From the IMG/VR virus record IMGVR_UViG_3300012942_000086, positions 1 through 37,183 of that record: 37,183 bases of DNA, one strand, 5' to 3'. Numbering within the stretch: position 1 is the first letter of the stretch; each line of letters begins with the position of its first letter. Under the pieces are notes generated by a model. It was not told where the DNA came from, ran no database searches, and worked only from the letters and a program-made list of their open reading frames with translations. Below are positions 3,101 to 11,577 of the stretch, one piece after another. Both the position numbers and the translations under genes were made by a program. The DNA is from a virus. Its lineage: Duplodnaviria > Caudoviricetes.

Positions 3101-3321
3101 CGCTGGTCGCGGACGTCGCCTACCTCGCGAGCGCGGCGGACAGCGCGGCCGACTTCCCCTTCGACCTGGCGGTCGCGGGCGAGGTGGTGCGGGTGACCGG
3201 CTGCACGGGCACCAGCTCGCCGCAGTCCCTCACCGTCATCCGCGCCATCAACGGCGTGAGCAAGCCGCTCCCGGCTGGCGCCTCGGTGGCGCTGGCGCAG
3301 CCCGCGATCGTCGCCATCTGA
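154..3321 (+). CDS. Minor tail/baseplate protein with LamG-like region and C-terminal carbohydrate-binding (CBM4/9-like) domain
   Basis: 1055 aa, follows the TMP. N-terminal VELQLGGVWTDVT..ITRGR..LTLDNRDGRFSP, internal LAYWPLED, and LTPNPDFELGLTGW CBM-like motif. Confidence 0.8.
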   Translation: MGLLPVTVELQLGGVWTDVTQWVYRRDDIRITRGRSDWGTEPDPGQCTLTLDNRDGRFSPRNPAGAWYGQLGRNTPMRVSVTAGSPRLYGGTATAARPASWTVATGLDVRVDLDTSVLYAPTAVIAQQSASSTTDYGWSLDVSAGIIWFRWTSDGTPATAHYVGAYLPSDLPSRCAIRVVAVPSSSGTTATISWATSVDSDAWTSIPTGTSTATSIHASAGPIAVGTAGGTLAARRIQLLTPSGTVLLDEDFTAVPAGATAWTGTGGIAWTADPGAITARRVRFVGEVSEWPSSWDASGTDVYATVTAYGRKRRMQRAGAPLESAVRRDLTSSGRTDILAYWPLEDSAGSTSAASALPGGQPMQVIHPGITWAATTGIPGSGPLPTMGTGTLRGSVPSAAPGVFAIRVVAEIPSTGVPSLQQLIRLDCGGSLPRWELNIGPSGTLQLVAYDQTTTRVLDTGAESFPMLVGGGRFVIGVDLQVTAPSATSYRVYTIALADAATVSTPLDLWQYPAPGTTMTAPGAVHGPGTITIGGGQGLGDQVTLGHVSVADSTSAYSNTGTALLGWLGEAATARVRRVAAENALPVWVRGADADSQPVGVQAVDTALTVLTDAAEADGGVLGEVRDALATSYRSRATLYNQQPAVTLDYGTPGLVPPLQPTDDDQHIANDVTVTRTNGSSAVAVLADGSPMSVADPPVGVGDYPQSVSLLLATDDQAATAAGWLLHLGTVDEARWPQVTVDMERVADVEAAAAVDIWDALRLSGLPAWEGVTTADLVVEGYSETLPGYGHWTVTYNCTPGSVWRVAEVGDAELARADVEGSTLAAAASASATTLSVACSGALWATSAKRLTPNPDFELGLTGWTGVGGTLTRVPTPEGAPFSGDWSAQLVSDGSSGSPHIESAQVAVTPGGTVIAHAAMLTAGSAGLGVNWFNASGGYLSTTSIAVPGAPGWQEVTATVTVPSTAHFATINPTLGITSAGSTLVADVAYLASAADSAADFPFDLAVAGEVVRVTGCTGTSSPQSLTVIRAINGVSKPLPAGASVALAQPAIVAI

Positions 3322-3334
3322 CCGAGGAGGACAT

Positions 3335-3874
3335 GTGTCCGGACTGGCGCTCCCCGCCGAGCTGACGTGGGCGGGCGGTAATCGGATTACCGCCGACAAG
3401 CTGAATGCGAATTTGCGGGATGCCGTCAATTTCCTGCTGAATCCGCCCAGGTTCATAGCGCGGTCGAATACGGGAACCAGCATTAACAGCGGCGGTAATT
3501 CCCCGTATACGACTGTCCCTCTGGAAACCATCGCCCTGGACCCGTATGGCGGCTGGAATTCGTCCACGAGCGCGTGGACGGTTCCGGTCGCCGGGTGGTA
3601 CGAGGTCAAGGGATTCGTGAATTACGCGGCCAACTCGGCCGGGTCCCGGGCCGTCGCATTCAGCCTGAATACCGCCGGCTCGACGATGACCGGCTCGGAG
3701 ACGTGGAACTCGGGCGGCCCTGGCCTGGTGTCCGTGAGGTCGACTACGTGTGTCCAGCTCAACGCTGGTGACACGATCTGGATGTGGACCTACCAGAACA
3801 GCGGGAGCGCCCTCGCGCTGAACTCCACCGGCGGAGTAACAGCCACTTTCTCCGCTCGATTCGACCACGCCTAA
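3335..3874 (+). CDS. Tail fibre/receptor-binding protein with C1q/TNF-like beta-sandwich
   Basis: N-terminal TWAGGNRITADKLNANLRD tail motif; DPYGGWNSSTSAWTVPVAGWYEV is C1q-like. SD GAGGAGG. Visibly lower GC. Confidence 0.65.
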   Translation: MSGLALPAELTWAGGNRITADKLNANLRDAVNFLLNPPRFIARSNTGTSINSGGNSPYTTVPLETIALDPYGGWNSSTSAWTVPVAGWYEVKGFVNYAANSAGSRAVAFSLNTAGSTMTGSETWNSGGPGLVSVRSTTCVQLNAGDTIWMWTYQNSGSALALNSTGGVTATFSARFDHA

Positions 3875-4191: not shown

Positions 4192-4884
4192 GTGCAGTTC
4201 CGCCGCTTCACCGAGCGCCCCGACAACCCCTACCGCCTCGGCCGGCACCAGGTGCACGACGCGCTCCCCGCGCACCTGGCCGCGGTCGAGGATCTGTTCT
4301 CGCCGATCCGCTCCGCCTCGCACGCGGAGGCTCAGCCGTGCTTCGACCAGGGCCAGATCGGCTCCTGCACCGCCAACGCGGCGCTCGGCACCCTGGTAAC
4401 GGAGCCGTTCGCGGTCGCCGGCCGGACGTTCACCGAGGCCGACGCGGTCGCGCTCTACACGCTGGAGACCCAGCTCGACGACTCGCAGATCCCCGGGCAG
4501 TACCCGCCGGACGACACCGGCAGCTCCGGGGCGTGGTCGATGCAGGCACTCCAGCGCAAGGGCCTGATCAGGAGCTACCGGCACACCACCTCGGTGCACA
4601 CGGCGCTGCGCATGCTCGCCCGCGGCCCGATCAGCATCGGCGTCCCGTGGTACCAGTCGATGTTCCAGGTCGGCCCGGACAACCGCATCGTGGTCAACCC
4701 CGCCTCGGGCCTCGCGGGCGGCCATCAGGTGTGCGTGGTGGCGGTCGACGCCGAGGCGCAGACCGTCCGCATCCGGAACTCCTGGGGGACCGGTTGGGCC
4801 GACCAGGGACACGCGCTCCTCTCCTGGGCCGACCTGGAGACCCTGTTCGCGCAGGGCGGCGACGCCGTCCAGCCGGAGGTGTGA
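4192..4884 (+). CDS. Papain-like (C1A) cysteine peptidase
   Basis: DQGQIGSCTANA (Gln oxyanion, catalytic Cys), GGHQV (His), IRNSWGTGW (Asn). GTG at 4192 after GGAGG. Confidence 0.85.
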   Translation: MQFRRFTERPDNPYRLGRHQVHDALPAHLAAVEDLFSPIRSASHAEAQPCFDQGQIGSCTANAALGTLVTEPFAVAGRTFTEADAVALYTLETQLDDSQIPGQYPPDDTGSSGAWSMQALQRKGLIRSYRHTTSVHTALRMLARGPISIGVPWYQSMFQVGPDNRIVVNPASGLAGGHQVCVVAVDAEAQTVRIRNSWGTGWADQGHALLSWADLETLFAQGGDAVQPEV

Positions 4885-4886
4885 CC

Positions 4887-5672
4887 GTGGCCCGGACGAT
4901 GTACGACTCCGTCAACGTCGCTGGCATCCCCGCCTCGGCGGCGATGGTCGCCGGGTACGTGGACGGCAACTACGCCAACATCCCCGCGCTCCGGGCCCGC
5001 TTCCCGCACGCGACGGTCGTCGAAATCGCCATCGCGCACACCACCCGCGCCCAGGTGCTCGACGTCGAGACCGGCGACGCCACGCCCGCGGGGGCGGTGC
5101 TGTGGTGCACGCAGACGATGGCCGACACCCCCAACACCGAGCTGACCGTGTACTGCAACAGCTCGACGTGGCCGGCCGTCCGTGCCGCCTTCGCCGCGGC
5201 GGGCGTCTCCGAGCCGCAGTACTGGATCGCCGACTACGACCACTCGGCCGTGATCCCGGCCGGCGCGGTCGCCAAGCAGTACACGAACACCGCCAGCTAC
5301 GACATCTCGGTCGTGGCGGATCACTGGCCGGGCGTCGACCCGGACCCGACCCCGGAGGCCGACGTGCCGCTGACCCCTGCCGACGCCCGGACCGTGTGGG
5401 CGTACAAGAACACCGCCTCGAAGACGCCGGACACGGAGGACATGCATCAGGTCCTCCTCGACGCGCGGGCGCAGGCGACCGCCGCCGTGGCGGGCGTGAA
5501 GGCGCTCACGGCGCAGCTCACGGCCGCGCAGGCGGCGATCGCCACGCTGGCCGGGAAGCTCGGCGCCGAGGTCGACACGGACACCGTCGTCGCCGCGGTT
5601 GAGAAGGCCATCGCCGACGCGCTCGCCGCGGACGTCGTGCACGTCGAGGTCTCCGGCCCGTCCGGCTCCTGA
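4887..5672 (+). CDS. Endolysin, GH25-like muramidase with C-terminal extension
   Basis: MYDS...AGYVDG...VLDVETGD...TVYCN...YWIADYD...AKQY...YDIS motifs. SD GGAGG. Upstream of the holin. Confidence 0.75.
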   Translation: MARTMYDSVNVAGIPASAAMVAGYVDGNYANIPALRARFPHATVVEIAIAHTTRAQVLDVETGDATPAGAVLWCTQTMADTPNTELTVYCNSSTWPAVRAAFAAAGVSEPQYWIADYDHSAVIPAGAVAKQYTNTASYDISVVADHWPGVDPDPTPEADVPLTPADARTVWAYKNTASKTPDTEDMHQVLLDARAQATAAVAGVKALTAQLTAAQAAIATLAGKLGAEVDTDTVVAAVEKAIADALAADVVHVEVSGPSGS

Positions 5673-6290: not shown

Positions 6291-6635
6291 TCAGGAGCGG
6301 AGGCAGACGTGGAGGATCTTGTGGCCGACGCAGCTCCCGACGGTGACGTGGTGGTGGCTGCTTCCGCCGCCGGTGGTGGTGGCGGGGGCGGTGTCGGCGG
6401 GGTCGGGCGTATCAGTGTCGGATGGGGCGGGGGTCTCGGGCGTGGCCGAGCTGGGCACGGGCTGCGCCGGGGTGCTGCTCACGGTCGCGGCCGGCGTCGC
6501 CGAGCTGGGCGGGGTGACGTGGGCGCCGATGATGCCGCACACGATCAGGAAGCCGATCACGGCCCCGAGGATGATCATGGGGCGCATGTTGGGGCGTGGC
6601 GCGGTGGTGGGCGGTTGGTAGGGCTGGCGCGGCAT
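6291..6635 (-). CDS. Membrane-anchored Pro/Thr-rich hypothetical protein (moron)
   Basis: TM segment IILGAVIGFLIVCGIIG; SD GAGGGGGA; C-terminal Cys pair. Confidence 0.65.
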   Translation of the reverse strand: MPRQPYQPPTTAPRPNMRPMIILGAVIGFLIVCGIIGAHVTPPSSATPAATVSSTPAQPVPSSATPETPAPSDTDTPDPADTAPATTTGGGSSHHHVTVGSCVGHKILHVCLRS

Positions 6636-6754: not shown

Positions 6755-6787
6755 GCGGCCCCCGCCACTTGCTCTGGCGGGGGCCGC
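6755..6787 (-). terminator. Hairpin terminator after the 184-aa ORF
   Basis: Perfect 13-bp stem GCGGCCCCCGCCA / TGGCGGGGGCCGC with a 7-nt loop. Confidence 0.7.
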
Positions 6788-6803
6788 GCTGCGCCGCGCT
6801 ACA

Positions 6804-7358
6804 TCAGTCGAGCATCCGCCGGCGCGCCGCGGCCGCCAGCTCGGACTCCTCGCCCGCGCGGATCTCCGGGTGCTCCGCGTCGAACTCGGCGAGGGCCTGG
6901 CGGGCGGCGGCCTCGCGGGCCGCGTACTCGGCCTCCTCGCCCTGGTGCCAGCGCTGCGGCACCCCGTCCTCGTAGGCGCGGGCTTTCGCGTCGGCCGCGC
7001 CCTCCAGCACCGCGGCGACGGCCTCCGCCAGGCCCCGGCGCTGCGACCCGAGCCGGATCACCTGCGCCTCCGGATTCGCCGCCCGCACGCGCTCGATGGC
7101 GGCCGCCACGGCGGCCGCGTGCTCCGCGGTGAGGACGACCTGGCCGATGTGGTGCGTGCGGTCCGGGAGGTCCACGCCGGCGCGGACCATCCGGGCGCGG
7201 TAGAAGTCGTCGATCTCGGCGAGGACCTTGTCGCGGGTGACGACCTCGCCAGCGCGGCGGACCTCGAGGCGCACCCCGTACCCGCTCAGTTGGGGCTTCA
7301 CGGTGACGGTGATGTCGCCGCTGTCCAGGGGGATGGTGACGGTCTCGGTGGTGCTCAT
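6804..7358 (-). CDS. Hypothetical protein, 184 aa (candidate anti-CRISPR/anti-defence protein)
   Basis: SD AGGAG, good codon usage, has its own operator-bearing promoter. Function inferred from context only. Confidence 0.75.
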   Translation of the reverse strand: MSTTETVTIPLDSGDITVTVKPQLSGYGVRLEVRRAGEVVTRDKVLAEIDDFYRARMVRAGVDLPDRTHHIGQVVLTAEHAAAVAAAIERVRAANPEAQVIRLGSQRRGLAEAVAAVLEGAADAKARAYEDGVPQRWHQGEEAEYAAREAAARQALAEFDAEHPEIRAGEESELAAAARRRMLD

Positions 7359-7406
7359 GGTGTGCTCCTGGGGTGTGGGGCCGGCGGTGTGCTGTCCCGA
7401 TGGCAG

Positions 7407-7438
7407 TAACTTTGCCGCACGTGCGGCAAAGTGTCAAG
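7407..7438 (-). promoter_or_regulatory. Sigma70-type promoter with 24-bp perfect palindromic operator, copy 1
   Basis: Minus strand TTGACA (7437-7432), 17 nt, CAAAGT. Palindrome ACTTTGCCGCACGTGCGGCAAAGT at 7409-7432. 31/32 identical to 8324-8355. Confidence 0.85.
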
Positions 7439-7471
7439 GGGATTCGGCGAGTCGACTTCGGCGGGGAAAAC

Positions 7472-7501
7472 GGAACGGCCGCCCCGGAGGACGGCCGTTC
7501 C
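7472..7501 (-). terminator. Hairpin followed by GTTTT, ending the repeat cassette; its core resembles a type I-C repeat stem
   Basis: GGAACGGCCG-N10-CGGCCGTTCC then GTTTT on the minus strand. Confidence 0.65.
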
Positions 7502-7648
7502 CACACCCTGCATCGGCAGGGACTACCTGCATGTCCGCGATCGGGACCGGGCCCGAGCCGGAACACCCCCACAGCGGCGGGGAGATCGTGCGCGCGTGGG
7601 ACCTGGATCGGGCCTACGCCGGTACACCCCCGCGACGGCGGGGAATCC
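7498..7648 (-). CRISPR. Degenerate type I-E-like mini-array: 3 repeats, 2 spacers, no cas genes
   Basis: Minus-strand repeats GGATTCCCCGCCGTCGCGGGGGTGTACCG (7648-7620), GATCTCCCCGCCGCTGTGGGGGTGTTCCG (7587-7559) and GTAGTCCCTGCCGATGCAGGGTGTGGGAA (7526-7498). Both spacers are exactly 32 nt (7588-7619, 7527-7558). Confidence 0.85.
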
Positions 7649-7710
7649 CCGCGGGCGCGGGGAGCATGCGGTGCTCCATCTGGAGCCATCCCCGCGGGCG
7701 CGGGGAGCAG
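7639..7710 (-). CRISPR. Two type I-E repeats of a second sequence family, separated by a 14-nt pseudo-spacer
   Basis: CTGCTCCCCGCGCCCGCGGGGATGGCTCC (7710-7682) and ATGCTCCCCGCGCCCGCGGGGATTCCCCG (7667-7639). They resemble Streptomyces I-E repeats as I recall them. Confidence 0.85.
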
Positions 7711-7718
7711 TGGTACGG

Positions 7719-7757
7719 ATTGAGATCCTCGGCCGCCCCCGAGAGGGCGACCGCCAC
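7719..7757 (-). CRISPR. Solitary type I-C-like repeat
   Basis: GTGGCGGTCGCCCTCTCGGGGGCGGCCGAGGATCTCAAT versus the recalled Streptomyces I-C repeat GTGGCGGTCGCCCTCCGGGGTGACCGAGGATCGCAAC. Confidence 0.75.
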
Positions 7758-7775
7758 TCCGCCTTGCGGCGGCGT

Positions 7776-8030
7776 CTACGACGGTAGCCCACCGGGGCCG
7801 GCACTGTCTCGCGTTTCGCGGAGATCGGTGCGCGCGCCGCGGCCGGGGGCGGCGGCGTGGGCCGCGCGGACCTGGTCGGCGTCGTAGACGGAGCCGATCC
7901 GGCCGGACTCCAGCCGGCGCTCCCCGCAGGCGCGCACTTCCCAGCGCGAGAGGGTGCGGCGGGCGGCGGCTGGAGTCTGGCCGAGGTGGGCGGCTACCTG
8001 GTTGATGTCCCAGGTCTCGGGGTCGGGCAT
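7776..8030 (-). CDS. Small HTH DNA-binding protein, 84 aa (candidate Aca-like repressor)
   Basis: WDINQVAAHLGQTPAAARRTLSRW HTH; YDADQVRA; C-terminal PGRGARTDL motif; SD GAGAGGA. Confidence 0.75.
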   Translation of the reverse strand: MPDPETWDINQVAAHLGQTPAAARRTLSRWEVRACGERRLESGRIGSVYDADQVRAAHAAAPGRGARTDLRETRDSAGPGGLPS

Positions 8031-8052
8031 GGCGGCGTATCCTCTCGTGGCG

Positions 8053-8089
8053 GCGGCCCCGCCCCCGGTTCGGTCGGGGGCGGGGCCGC
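8053..8089 (-). terminator. Strong intergenic hairpin (attenuator or stabiliser)
   Basis: 15-bp stem GCGGCCCCGCCCCCG / CGGGGGCGGGGCCGC. Confidence 0.6.
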
Positions 8090-8100
8090 TGGCGTGCTGG

Positions 8101-8274
8101 TCAGGCGCGGTAGACGCCGTCCTCGGTGTGGTCGAGGACGTCGCGGAGCTCCTGCTCGACGCGCTCGGGGAGCTCGTCGCTCTGGCCGATGCCGTCGAGG
8201 AGGGGGCCGCCGAACGCCTCCAGCTCGTGGGGCTGCATGCGGTACTCGGCGGCGATGCTGGCGATGGTGGCCAT
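8101..8274 (-). CDS. Small acidic protein, 57 aa (candidate anti-CRISPR/DNA mimic)
   Basis: ATG 8274 after SD GAGGAG; 13 D/E versus 4 R; first gene behind the promoter. Confidence 0.75.
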   Translation of the reverse strand: MATIASIAAEYRMQPHELEAFGGPLLDGIGQSDELPERVEQELRDVLDHTEDGVYRA

Positions 8275-8323
8275 GTGGGGCTCCTCTGGTCTGTGCGGCG
8301 GGGCCTGTCCCTGCCGACACCCA

Positions 8324-8355
8324 TAACCTTGCCGCACGTGCGGCAAAGTGTCAAG
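8324..8355 (-). promoter_or_regulatory. Promoter with palindromic operator, copy 2
   Basis: TTGACA (8354-8349), 17 nt, CAAGGT. Palindrome TTGCCGCACGTGCGGCAA at 8329-8346. Confidence 0.85.
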
Positions 8356-8357
8356 CC

Positions 8358-8606
8358 CTATCCGCGCCCCGGCTTCGGCCCGACGAAACTCCCCAGCCCC
8401 GGCACGGTGTACGTCCACCCGTCCTCGCGGAGCGCGCGGAGGGCTTTCTGCGCGGTGGCCGCAGCCACGCCGAAATCGGCGTGGAGCGCGACGACGGAGG
8501 GGACGCGCTCCCCGCGCGAGTAGGTGCCGTCCTCGATCCGCGCCACGATCAGGTCGCGCAACTGCTGCCATCGCGGCACGTCAGAGGCCCAGTCGATCTC
8601 ATCCAC
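8358..8606 (-). CDS. GntR-family winged-HTH regulator (DNA-binding domain only)
   Basis: PRWQQLRDLIVARIEDGTYSRGERVPS...FGVAAATAQKALRALREDGWTYTVPGLGSFV. Confidence 0.9.
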   Translation of the reverse strand: MDEIDWASDVPRWQQLRDLIVARIEDGTYSRGERVPSVVALHADFGVAAATAQKALRALREDGWTYTVPGLGSFVGPKPGRG

Positions 8607-8762
8607 ATGGTCACCGTGGCACGCGGCGGCGCACGTCGCGAGCGAGGAATGCTGCGCACGCTATGTATTCCACGGCGTACTAGAGGTACCGTGGCCAGAA
8701 ACGCGAGTGCCCCGGCGCCGCTGTCACGGCCCGGGGCTGGCAGACCAGATGAGGTGGTCCAC

Positions 8763-9227
8763 GTGAGGGATGCTACGGCCCCCGCAGGGTTCTACGCGAG
8801 AGCCCGAACCGGCGTCGACGACGACCCGCAGCCGGATCCGGACCTGCCGCCGGTGTGGCGGCTGGACGCGGTCCCGGAGTCCGTGAGCGCGGCCCGGCGC
8901 GCGGTCGCCGCCCACCTGGACGCCATCGAGATCCTGCCGCCGGAGCGCGCGGCCGAGCTGGTGCTGCTGGTCTCCGAGATGACCACCAACGCCATCAGGT
9001 ACGGGTCCGAGCCGGGCGACTGCATCCAGATCATCTTGATGTCCGACGAGACGGGCGTGCGGGTGGAGGTCCACGACACCAACCGCCGGCCCCCCAGGTT
9101 CAAGCCGGAGTCGGAGGAGCGGCAGCGTGGTCGCGGCCTATACCTGCTCCAGGCGCTCGCGGACAGGTGGGGGACGGGCCCGCGGGTGTTCGGGAAGTAC
9201 GTGTGGGCGGAGATCGACCGCCGATAG
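8763..9227 (+). CDS. HATPase_c (RsbW-like anti-sigma/ATP-binding) protein
   Basis: SVSAARR, LLVSEMTTNAIRYG (N box), VEVHD (G1), RGRGLYLLQALADRWG (G2), GKYVWAE. The start position is approximate. Confidence 0.88.
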   Translation: MRDATAPAGFYARARTGVDDDPQPDPDLPPVWRLDAVPESVSAARRAVAAHLDAIEILPPERAAELVLLVSEMTTNAIRYGSEPGDCIQIILMSDETGVRVEVHDTNRRPPRFKPESEERQRGRGLYLLQALADRWGTGPRVFGKYVWAEIDRR

Positions 9228-9315
9228 AGGCGTCTGCGGGCCCCTCCCCGGGTGTGCCCGCAGATGGCGGCCCCGGGCGCGCGGCGCGTCCCGGGGCCGC
9301 AGCATGTCCCGGCGC

Positions 9316-9582
9316 CTACTCCTCCGGGTGCTCGATCTCCTCGCCCGCGGGCTCGACCGGGTCGGGGTCGCCGCGGACCCATGCGCCGGTCTGGAGGACG
9401 TCGACCAGGCCGCGCGCGTGCAGCTCGACCAGGGCCCGCGCGATGGTTTTCGTCGACACGCCGTGTTCGGCCGCGAGGTCGTAGCGGTTCGGCAGCCGTC
9501 CGCCCGGCCGGAGCCGCCCGGATCGGATGCCGGCCTCGATCGTGTCCGCCACCCGCTCGTACAGGTACCTGGTCTGCCGCAT
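9316..9582 (-). CDS. GntR-family winged-HTH regulator (DNA-binding domain only)
   Basis: YLYERVADTIEAGIRSGRLRPGGRLPNRYDLAAEHGVSTKTIARALVELHARGLV. Confidence 0.9.
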   Translation of the reverse strand: MRQTRYLYERVADTIEAGIRSGRLRPGGRLPNRYDLAAEHGVSTKTIARALVELHARGLVDVLQTGAWVRGDPDPVEPAGEEIEHPEE

Positions 9583-9723: not shown

Positions 9724-9837
9724 ACTACCCGAGCGCATACGATCAAGAGGTCGACTCGGGCGTGTCGTCTCATCACCCCGGGCCGGCGAATGGCCCCCGC
9801 CAGCGCGTCTGGCGGGGGCCTCTTTCGCGCCTCCGGG

Positions 9838-9918: not shown

Positions 9919-11577
9919 CTACTCCGCCCAGGGGTCCGGCTCCCACACCGGGTGAATCTCGATCCGGGTCTGTCCGGAGCCCTCCACGCCCTTCTGGCCG
10001 GCGGCGCCGCGGGTCAGCACGACCCTGCGCACCAGCTCCCGGAGCAGGCGGTTCTTCTCCTCCGCGGTCATGATCTCCCAGGCGTCGAGCAGGCCGAGCA
10101 TGACCGGGCGGACGTCGAGCCGGACCACCTCGGCCGGCGTCTCGCCGAGGCTCGCGAGAGCCTGCCGGGCCTGGTCGCGGCGCTGCATGATCTCGCGCTG
10201 CGCCGCCTCGTACACCTCCGGCGGCATCGCGTCCGGGTGCATGGCGTGCTCGACGGCGAGCCGGGTAAGGGCCTGCCCGGCCCGCTCGACCTCGGCGACC
10301 AGCTTGCCGCGCTCGGCGGCGGCGCGCCGCAGCTGCTCCTCCGGGACGCGGCGTTGCGCGGGGATCGTGGTGGCGGGGGTGGCGTCGATGCCGGCGGCGG
10401 CCTCGCGGGCGAGCCAGATCCTCAGCTCGTCCTCGACGATGGCGCGCTGCACCCACACCGGGGAATCGCAGACGGTCCGGCCGGTGCTGTGGCCCTGGCC
10501 GCAGGACAGGGCGTAGCCGGGGACCTGGCCGCCCTTGCGCCGGGCGCTGGTGGCGTTCGCGCCCCCGCGGCAGTTGCCGCAGCGGGCGAGCCCGGTGGTC
10601 GGGTAGATCGGGTTGCGGGCGCGGGGCGCGGTGCCGCGGATCTCTGCGCGCAGGTCGAGCCAGCGTTCCCAGGTCTCGGGGGTGATCAGGGCCTCGTGCC
10701 TGCCCTCTATGTAGGTCCAGCGGGTGCAGGTGCCCCCGTTGGCCTTGTAGTCGCAGTGGCATTCGGGGTCGTGGATGCGGAGGAGGCCGGCGGGGAATCC
10801 GGTGCGCATGTAGCGGCGTAGGCCGTCGAATTTCCAGAGGCGGCCCCAACCGTTGCGGAGGCCTGCGGCGTTGAGGCGGGCGACGAGGGCGGCGTAGCCG
10901 GTGCGGTGGTCGAGCTGGTCGGTGTAGAGGGCGGCGACGATCGGCGCGGTCTCGGGGTCGGGCTCGTACCACTCGGGCTGGAGAATCCATTTGCCGGGCC
11001 GGGCGGGGTCGGGGATGCGGCGGCGGTGCCAGATGTAGCCGAGGCGCTGGCCGCCGGTGGCGGGGATGCCGTGCTGGCGCCGGAGCGCGTGGGTCTCGCG
11101 CCACTGCTCCCCGGCCCGGTCGGACTCGAAGGCGGCGACCTCAAGGAGCATGCCGCGGGTGAAGCGGCCGGTGGCGGTGCGGGCGTCGACGGCCTCGGTC
11201 GCGGACTGGAGGACGCCGCCGACGCGCTCGACGCGCGCGAGGTTGAGGGCGACGCCGGCCCGGTCGCGGCCGAAGCGGCTGAACTTCCAGACGGCGATGC
11301 CGGCGGCGGCGCCTTCCTCGATGGCGGTGATGCCCTGCATGATGCGGCGCTTGAAGTTCCGGCCGGTGGCGTCGAGGTCGGTGATCCAGCCGATGATGCG
11401 GTGCCCGTTGCGGTTGGCCCAGGAGGTGATTGCCTCGGCCTGGATTTCGGGACTGATGGCCTCCTCGCGCCAGGTGGAGACGCGGACGTAGCCGATGTAC
11501 GGGGTGCCGTCGGGGGGGCCGGCGGGCGGCCCCTCGATGGCGTACTGGGACAGGTCGGGCGGTAGGTGGATGGTCAC
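9919..11577 (-). CDS. int: Large serine recombinase (integrase)
   Basis: YIGYVRVST catalytic Ser, VWKFSRFGR, recombinase domain, CGNC..C..C zinc ribbon, coiled coil. GTG 11577 overlaps the upstream stop. Confidence 0.95.
   Translation of the reverse strand: MTIHLPPDLSQYAIEGPPAGPPDGTPYIGYVRVSTWREEAISPEIQAEAITSWANRNGHRIIGWITDLDATGRNFKRRIMQGITAIEEGAAAGIAVWKFSRFGRDRAGVALNLARVERVGGVLQSATEAVDARTATGRFTRGMLLEVAAFESDRAGEQWRETHALRRQHGIPATGGQRLGYIWHRRRIPDPARPGKWILQPEWYEPDPETAPIVAALYTDQLDHRTGYAALVARLNAAGLRNGWGRLWKFDGLRRYMRTGFPAGLLRIHDPECHCDYKANGGTCTRWTYIEGRHEALITPETWERWLDLRAEIRGTAPRARNPIYPTTGLARCGNCRGGANATSARRKGGQVPGYALSCGQGHSTGRTVCDSPVWVQRAIVEDELRIWLAREAAAGIDATPATTIPAQRRVPEEQLRRAAAERGKLVAEVERAGQALTRLAVEHAMHPDAMPPEVYEAAQREIMQRRDQARQALASLGETPAEVVRLDVRPVMLGLLDAWEIMTAEEKNRLLRELVRRVVLTRGAAGQKGVEGSGQTRIEIHPVWEPDPWAE

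Follow-up and report, generated by a model that had tools for sequence, protein, structure and literature searches.

What is the role of a short array of the CRISPR type in a phage genome, next to a small helix-turn-helix (HTH) gene and away from any cas gene? The question is raised by IMG/VR record IMGVR_UViG_3300012942_000086, a whole viral contig of 37,183 nt with 73% G+C, referred to here as the window. Between positions 6,755 and 8,355 it carries an island that the original prediction read as an operon of anti-CRISPR (acr) and anti-CRISPR-associated (aca) type wrapped around a repeat cassette. Every part listed in that prediction (promoters/operators, open reading frames (ORFs), hairpin, HTH, repeats and terminators) was located, on the minus strand (Table 1). 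The analysis leans towards a role of the island in counter-defence for a temperate phage of Streptomyces type: promoters shut by the HTH protein would be combined with a guide array that silences the host cas locus.

The two promoter/operator copies share the arrangement TTGACA-17 nt-CAA(G/A)GT, with a 24-nt palindrome that runs from the end of the -35 box across the spacer and the -10 box. Copy 1 heads the unit formed by the 57-aa ORF and the HTH gene and copy 2 heads the 184-aa unit, and the 37,183-nt window holds no further copy of the operator's 18-nt core. A generic sigma-70 scan called neither a promoter nor a terminator in the island, where the -10 boxes score 3/6 and the T tails are short; the term promoter is kept because of the perfect -35 box, the spacing and the conservation in relatives.

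The 84-aa HTH protein has 20 near-length relatives (46-64% identity) and belongs to a family of 441 clusters at E<=0.001, or 147 at 1e-10, counted among 50%-identity representatives. A single-sequence query of viral contigs returned no match; relatives were recovered by an alignment-based query, and the alignment is not conserved beyond RTDL. No Pfam or NCBIfam family scored above cut-off. The structure model is a winged helix with a mean predicted local distance difference test score of 79, and its best fold matches, all sub-threshold, were BldC, the Pukovnik Xis and RacA. The protein models as a MerR/Xis/BldC-like winged helix, and a profile search of the PDB sequences returned no Aca at E<=5. 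A role as excisionase or terminase subunit is compatible with the fold and was set aside because family members retain operator and cargo also on plasmids and at a distance from integrases. As a small protein with a DNA-binding domain that ends a short operon in a mobile element, it resembles an Aca. In many members of the family, the domain is fused at the C-terminus of proteins of 120-310 aa, with cargo and regulator in one chain.

The evidence that carries the interpretation comes from the neighbourhoods of the HTH relatives. From 181 loci, 173 had the HTH by profile and 115 were retained as non-redundant representatives including the window, and the counts given below are based on the other 114. 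The promoter/palindrome lies upstream of the HTH gene on the same strand in 42/114 relatives, as scored with a matrix of the 33-nt operator that was trained on 29 of these sites. The proportion is 37/63 for relatives with a profile score >=60 and >=600 nt of upstream DNA, and control DNA (843 kb) gave 0 matches. The operator was also found at 4 of 6 plasmid loci outside the training of the matrix, these six having been examined out of 20 plasmid HTH matches. A conserved inverted repeat thus overlaps the operon promoter, as is expected of an Aca. Operator and HTH are separated by small ORFs, most of them acidic, which come from several unrelated families.

Type I-E mini-arrays are present at 21/114 loci. 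Within 1.5 kb of the HTH gene, 24 arrays were counted in 302 kb, against none in the 244 kb that lie beyond (p=7e-7, although the loci are mutually related and association p-values overstate their independence, which counts against the proposed reading). Arrays occur at 16 of 39 loci with the operator and at 2 of 55 without it, among the 94 loci with enough upstream DNA. Moreover, one family of ~100-aa acidic cargo proteins is accompanied by an array at 13/13 loci, compared with 8/101 other loci. The suggestion that the HTH could serve as a marker is borne out: its family travels with the operator, variable small acidic genes and type I-E mini-arrays far above background, and this co-occurrence makes it usable as an Aca-like marker. 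The guilt-by-association search proposed with it recovered variable neighbours (small acidic genes) and repeats, and no known Acrs. For the labels "acr" and "Aca", the layout of regulator, operator and cargo held up; they stay candidates because none of the neighbours scanned against NCBIfam and Pfam matched a known Acr family.

The 184-aa protein of the second unit, which matched no Pfam, PHROG or NCBIfam family above cut-off, belongs to a family of 9 proteins including that of the window. Its homologues at L043 and L048 occupy the slot between operator and HTH, which supports a co-regulation by the second operator; this operator plausibly co-regulates the 184-aa gene with the first unit.

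Several features of the same loci speak against the island as a counter-CRISPR system. In phage Ignacio, the operator directly precedes the HTH gene (gene 23, L078) with no cargo, just after the lysis genes. The window itself is devoid of the array-linked ~100-aa family and has a 57-aa orphan instead, and no neighbour matched a named Acr family in the general libraries searched (30 proteins against NCBIfam, 28 against Pfam). This last result, together with the 93/114 relatives without an array, the other contexts seen at plasmid loci and the promoter-like motif that the array has of its own (see below), would suit an HTH cassette that is a general self-limiting module for early expression in actinobacterial phages and plasmids, with cargo against other defences or host processes and a mini-array that is an independent passenger in an accessory hot spot. 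This alternative is improbable, given that no array lies more than 1.5 kb from the HTH gene and that arrays are tied to operator loci and, at 13/13 loci, to one cargo family.

Three related loci merit description in their own right. The cultured phage ZL12 (L079, GQ919031.1 ~83,100-84,000) carries the operator, a ~100-aa cargo gene, the HTH gene and a divergent three-repeat array, all unannotated. On the Streptomyces anulatus plasmid NZ_CP108572.1 (L480), the operator is followed by three small genes, the HTH gene and a four-repeat array, two spacers of which start like two ZL12 spacers. At L110, a ten-repeat array whose spacers measure 31-32 nt and a second, short array flank the HTH locus, in a distinct repeat variant. 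The ~100-aa acidic family (L061:3129-3428 and 12 other loci) is the strongest candidate when an Acr partner for type I-E is sought; fold searches gave no clear match for it (best Z 6.1), although it may have a known fold.

The cassette of the window (7498-7710) is its only such array and consists of five type I-E-like hairpins in the order R1-14 nt-R2/R3 (10-nt overlap)-32 nt-R4-32 nt-R5. The fused R2/R3 junction recurs in relative L108; it was not found in IMG/VR, L108 being part of another collection. Rfam gave no family at gathering level and 3 matches at chance level. Cracr arrays are characterised by degenerate units that resemble CRISPR repeats, carry spacers and sit in a phage at a distance from cas genes, and the cassette displays this trait. 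The solitary repeat unit of a Racr is absent, the cassette having five repeats and three spacers. The label "Racr" was thus dropped: the array has multiple spacers, and two relatives with evidence from their own hosts resemble Cascade guides directed at cas loci.

The original prediction also held that the RNA is co-regulated with the proteins and shut off by the HTH. A GCTAYNRT motif, part of a promoter-like element that this prediction had not listed, is located at 7781-7788, 70 nt before R1, within the non-conserved tail of the HTH gene, and a GAGACA 18 nt upstream of it is common to the window, L087 and L137. GCTAYNRT, which was picked by eye from the same loci, lies <=130 nt upstream of 13/21 array starts, the window's included, compared with 0.5% in random windows. 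In addition, the array is placed upstream and divergent, outside the operator-controlled transcript, at 12/19 relatives' loci, and follows the HTH gene as in the window at only 4/19. The array therefore probably has its own promoter, which makes HTH control of its RNA doubtful, and that part of the prediction was not upheld. Some read-through from the operator promoter could still reach the array.

The spacers provide a further indication of function. Among 38 distinct spacers (the long arrays of L110 left out), 18 are shorter than 30 nt and 14 of those 18 measure exactly 14, 20 or 26 nt, in keeping with the 6-nt periodicity of the Cas7 backbone. Cascade was reported to lose one Cas7 per 6 nt of spacer shortening, and Cascades shortened by 6-18 nt to form unlocked R-loops that do not support cleavage (PMC6859484). 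Gene repression by Cascade was described in Streptomyces with a 5'-AAG protospacer-adjacent motif (PAM; PMC11560957). Cas8e scored above cut-off in 182/371 Streptomycetaceae genomes. None of the conclusions depends on G135, an unpublished genome.

Two relatives have matches in the cas loci of their own hosts. A spacer of L061 matches an AAC-PAM site of host G005 at positions 1-17 except the flipped position 12 (p=0.002). The site lies ~580 nt upstream of the HD domain of cas3; it is bordered on one side by a host mini-array that has a similar spacer and on the other by a short hydrophobic ORF, itself upstream of cas3. A 26-nt spacer of L063 matches an AAC-PAM site inside its host's cas8e with mismatches at positions 6, 18, 22 and 26; this pattern matches only the cas8e site and the array itself, and the control gave 0. 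Similarly, a 20-nt spacer of ZL12 matches the spacer of a self-targeting host mini-array of G199 at positions 1-14 except 6, and a spacer of L043 resembles a host mini-array spacer in L340. A target of the kind expected of a Cracr was thus found for L061, L063 and ZL12. The cas-locus matches of L061 and L063, the only target matches that stand, on own-host evidence at the level of sequence, point to Cracr-type guides rather than plain Racr decoys.

A number of results detract from the guide function. L063 is a distant HTH relative that does not have this operator. Over the whole set, 3/48 spacers reached p<=0.05 for non-coding sites and 2/48 for all sites, which is about chance level. For L165 and L056, the own-host target tests failed, and 3 of the 5 host genomes tested yielded no cas8e. 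As for the window, S2 matched 0/401 genomes and S3 1/401, compared with 3 control matches; S1-S3 had no match in IMG/VR, and no protospacer for the window's spacers was found in 50,697 cultured-phage records. Against 230 cas regions, S1-S3 gave best p values of 0.18-0.94, not above chance, the host of the phage not being identified. The window's spacers have no target in the phage itself (best run 4). Two candidates were rejected: 9-base seed matches of S2 near two cas3 regions (L279, L386; p=0.23), and spacer matches of L016 and L165, which were not robust across tests.

The same cas regions yielded observations on the hosts. In G005 (L292, minus strand, ~3250-3780), a host mini-array, the AAC-PAM target, a ~54-aa hydrophobic ORF and a hairpin precede cas3, a unit that looks like a CRISPR-repressed toxin-antitoxin in a Streptomyces type I-E locus. 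In the 230 cas regions (1.79 Mb), a PAM-flanked self-target was counted for 16/140 host mini-array spacers, of 14, 20 and 30-38 nt, in a tally where two rows are one locus and no null was computed. Host CreR-like mini-arrays of Streptomycetaceae with self-targets near cas3 or cas8e and spacers of 14-38 nt are L299, L300, L207, L363 and L378; further ones are L392, L395, L419, L452, L456, L457, L462 and L472.

The same-strand gene order of the window, which recurs downstream of the HTH gene at 4/19 relatives' loci, could also reflect a single HTH-controlled transcript for Acr, HTH and a decoy RNA (Racr) that merely soaks up Cas6e/Cas7, all switched off jointly. The spacer-less R2/R3 fusion seen again in L108 would give a guide-less fragment, S2 and S3 fold on themselves, and no target was found for the window's spacers, all of which would fit a decoy. 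Nevertheless, the array's own promoter-like motif, the strong hairpin before the HTH gene, the divergent arrays at 12/19 relatives' loci and the two own-host seed matches make a single decoy transcript unlikely. It should be added that decoy and guide roles are compatible, as Cracrs do both (10.1101/2024.10.29.618823).

An array that acts between phages, with 32-nt spacers guiding the host Cascade-Cas3 against rival phages or plasmids, would explain why S2 and S3 are full-length and why most long spacers of the relatives likewise have no cas match. It is very improbable: no protospacer appeared in IMG/VR, the 50,697 phage records or the 401 genomes, spacers of 14-26 nt would not support cleavage, and the matches that were found sit in cas loci. 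Finally, a decayed, functionless remnant of a captured host array could account for repeats that differ among themselves and for the missing spacer, and is scarcely credible for an array in which all stems pair (R5 by a two-sided change), spacing is exactly 14 or 32 nt, a promoter-like motif and a terminator are present and 21 relatives have a counterpart.

For the counter-defence island, the following course of events is proposed. On DNA entry, both unrepressed promoters would express the 57-aa and 184-aa proteins; very probably, this burst of cargo proteins comes first and the HTH protein then binds the palindrome and represses both promoters. The array RNA would be made from its own promoter, perhaps in the lysogen too, and is likely to be processed by host Cas6e cutting at each hairpin, as suggested by the type I-E stem kept in all five hairpins and by the spacers of 14 and 32 nt. 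From the fused R2/R3 pair, a further fragment devoid of a guide would arise. The RNA would occupy Cascade and steer repression of the cas locus, and the relatives tip the balance slightly towards window RNAs that compete with genuine CRISPR RNAs and guide Cascade, by a partial match and with no cleavage, to promoters or genes of the cas locus. The 57-aa and 184-aa proteins are candidate Acrs by position, size and acidity; judged from position, an anti-CRISPR or other anti-defence role is conceivable for each, with the balance somewhat against it.

Table 1. Elements of the island in the window, listed from the first promoter to the last terminator-like hairpin.
Feature	Position	Strand	Remarks
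Promoter/operator copy 1	8324..8354	-	TTGACA, 17 nt, CAAGGT; 24-nt palindrome 8326-8349; predicted HTH binding site
57-aa acidic ORF	8101..8274	-	Net charge -9; candidate Acr by position
Long GC-rich hairpin between 57-aa ORF and HTH	8052..8090	-	-40.3 kcal/mol, no U tail
84-aa winged-helix protein, predicted autorepressor	7776..8030	-	Unnamed family of actinobacterial phages and plasmids; tail PGRGARTDL conserved
Candidate own promoter of the array	7781..7810	-	GAGACA, 18 nt, TACCGT; extended GCTAYNRT motif
Structured leader, three hairpins	7711..7775	-	Precedes R1
Repeat R1	7682..7710	-	Type I-E-like; 27/29 identical to a repeat of Streptomyces type I-E host arrays
Spacer S1, 14 nt (32 minus 18)	7668..7681	-	No target found
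Fused R2 (7639-7667) and R3 (7620-7648)	7620..7667	-	10-nt overlap, no spacer
Spacer S2, 32 nt	7588..7619	-	No target found
Repeat R4	7559..7587	-	Type I-E-like
Spacer S3, 32 nt	7527..7558	-	No target found
Terminal degenerate repeat R5	7498..7526	-	Stem pairing kept by a two-sided change
Terminator-like hairpin closing the array	7466..7502	-	-27.9 kcal/mol, TTTT tail
Promoter/operator copy 2	7407..7437	-	Perfect 24-nt palindrome 7409-7432
184-aa ORF	6804..7358	-	~35% identity to genes that L043 and L048 carry within their HTH operons
Terminator-like hairpin closing the island	6757..6785	-	-26.2 kcal/mol

The hairpin between the 57-aa ORF and the HTH gene is likely to be an attenuator or partial terminator. 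The G+C content at third codon positions of the 57-aa, 84-aa and 184-aa ORFs is 0.98, 0.88 and 0.97, respectively. For the 57-aa protein, a search for near-length proteins returned only itself, the Atlas gave no match, and there was no profile match to the array-linked ~100-aa acidic family.

By analogy, the island works like an acr-aca-type operon with a second regulated unit, combined with a Cracr-type array (general background in 10.1101/2024.01.05.574328). The likeness to acr-aca operons, described for Aca1-Aca14, lies in an inverted repeat over the promoter, variable small genes and a regulator in last position, as well as a second site before the next operon, by which a neighbouring operon is controlled (PMC13551039). 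It differs in the MerR/Xis/BldC-like model, which has no sequence match to a solved Aca, in the absence of a known acr beside it and in a binding that is predicted. The four actinobacterial Aca families of AcaFinder all accompany AcrIC5 (PMC9765179).

Cracr arrays are phage-borne, degenerate and multi-spacer, with a terminator, short spacers and adjoining small protein genes, and have PAM-proximal matches to host cas loci that mirror the spacers of host CreR/CreA; arrays with untraced spacers were also reported (10.1101/2024.10.29.618823). In contrast, the present arrays belong to type I-E of Streptomycetaceae, with spacer lengths that rise by 6 nt (14/20/26/32), a fused pair of repeats and an HTH/operator marker, and one relative has its target inside cas8e, while the window's spacers have no target found. 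"Streptomyces" and "HTH" do not occur in the main text of that report, although Actinomycetota are among the candidates in its tables, where some of these arrays may be listed. Both assignments, Aca and Cracr, stay candidate because no known acr is adjacent and no target was found for S1-S3. A Racr likewise imitates a repeat without cas genes, in a phage and next to candidate acr genes, but the five repeats and spacers found here are not solitary, and mini-arrays were set apart from the Racr candidates in the original report (PMC10651486). Host CreR mini-arrays are degenerate too, with spacers that partly match a PAM-flanked site near cas genes (10.1101/2023.03.10.532045, 10.1101/2023.03.03.530964), and host mini-arrays with 14-, 20- and 32-nt spacers are present in the Streptomycetaceae cas regions examined; here, however, the array is in a phage, away from any cas gene.

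The principles of Aca autoregulation, Cracr guides and Acr-RNA pairing are already published. Literature searches found no Aca, Acr or Cracr described for Streptomyces phages, nor this regulator or such loci. Type I-E is common in Streptomycetaceae, and the HTH with its 33-nt operator is a sharp search handle, yielding several unnamed cargo families and guide arrays, some of which have a predicted host target. With the handle and the predicted targets, it therefore becomes testable by what means actinophages overcome the immunity of type I-E, and the cultured ZL12 has the whole set, unannotated. The engineering of Streptomyces would also profit from inhibitors of type I-E and from compact guides that act as repressors. 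A bolder and rather unlikely proposal is that this unnamed MerR/Xis-like family is the marker of a first large set of anti-CRISPR loci in actinobacteria, its operons supplying new type I-E Acrs that act jointly with 14/20/26-nt guides, which build shortened, non-cleaving Cascades to silence host cas genes, as a type I-E counterpart of the AcrIF24-Cracr pairing that has gone unannotated in ZL12.

The surroundings of the island agree with a Streptomyces-type phage. Family scans identified a serine integrase (9919-11577), RecT, SSB, WhiB, terminase and portal proteins in the window, and the terminase is 68-69% identical to those of Streptomyces phages SV1, ToastyFinz, Ignacio and their kin. The island is flanked by putative lysis genes and by a GntR-HATPase-GntR trio that precedes the integrase, a position that appears to be a usual site for accessory genes. 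The lysis region (4192-5672, plus strand) encodes a papain-like peptidase followed by a 263-aa protein with no Pfam or PHROG match. On the same strand as the island and 3' of it, a 114-aa ORF (6291-6635, minus strand) that matched no family combines a hydrophobic segment with a tail rich in Pro and Thr. Between the island and the integrase (8358-9582), the trio consists of a GntR HTH protein, a HATPase_c_2 protein and a second GntR HTH protein, and a hairpin at 9792-9820 is 83% identical to the last terminator of the island.

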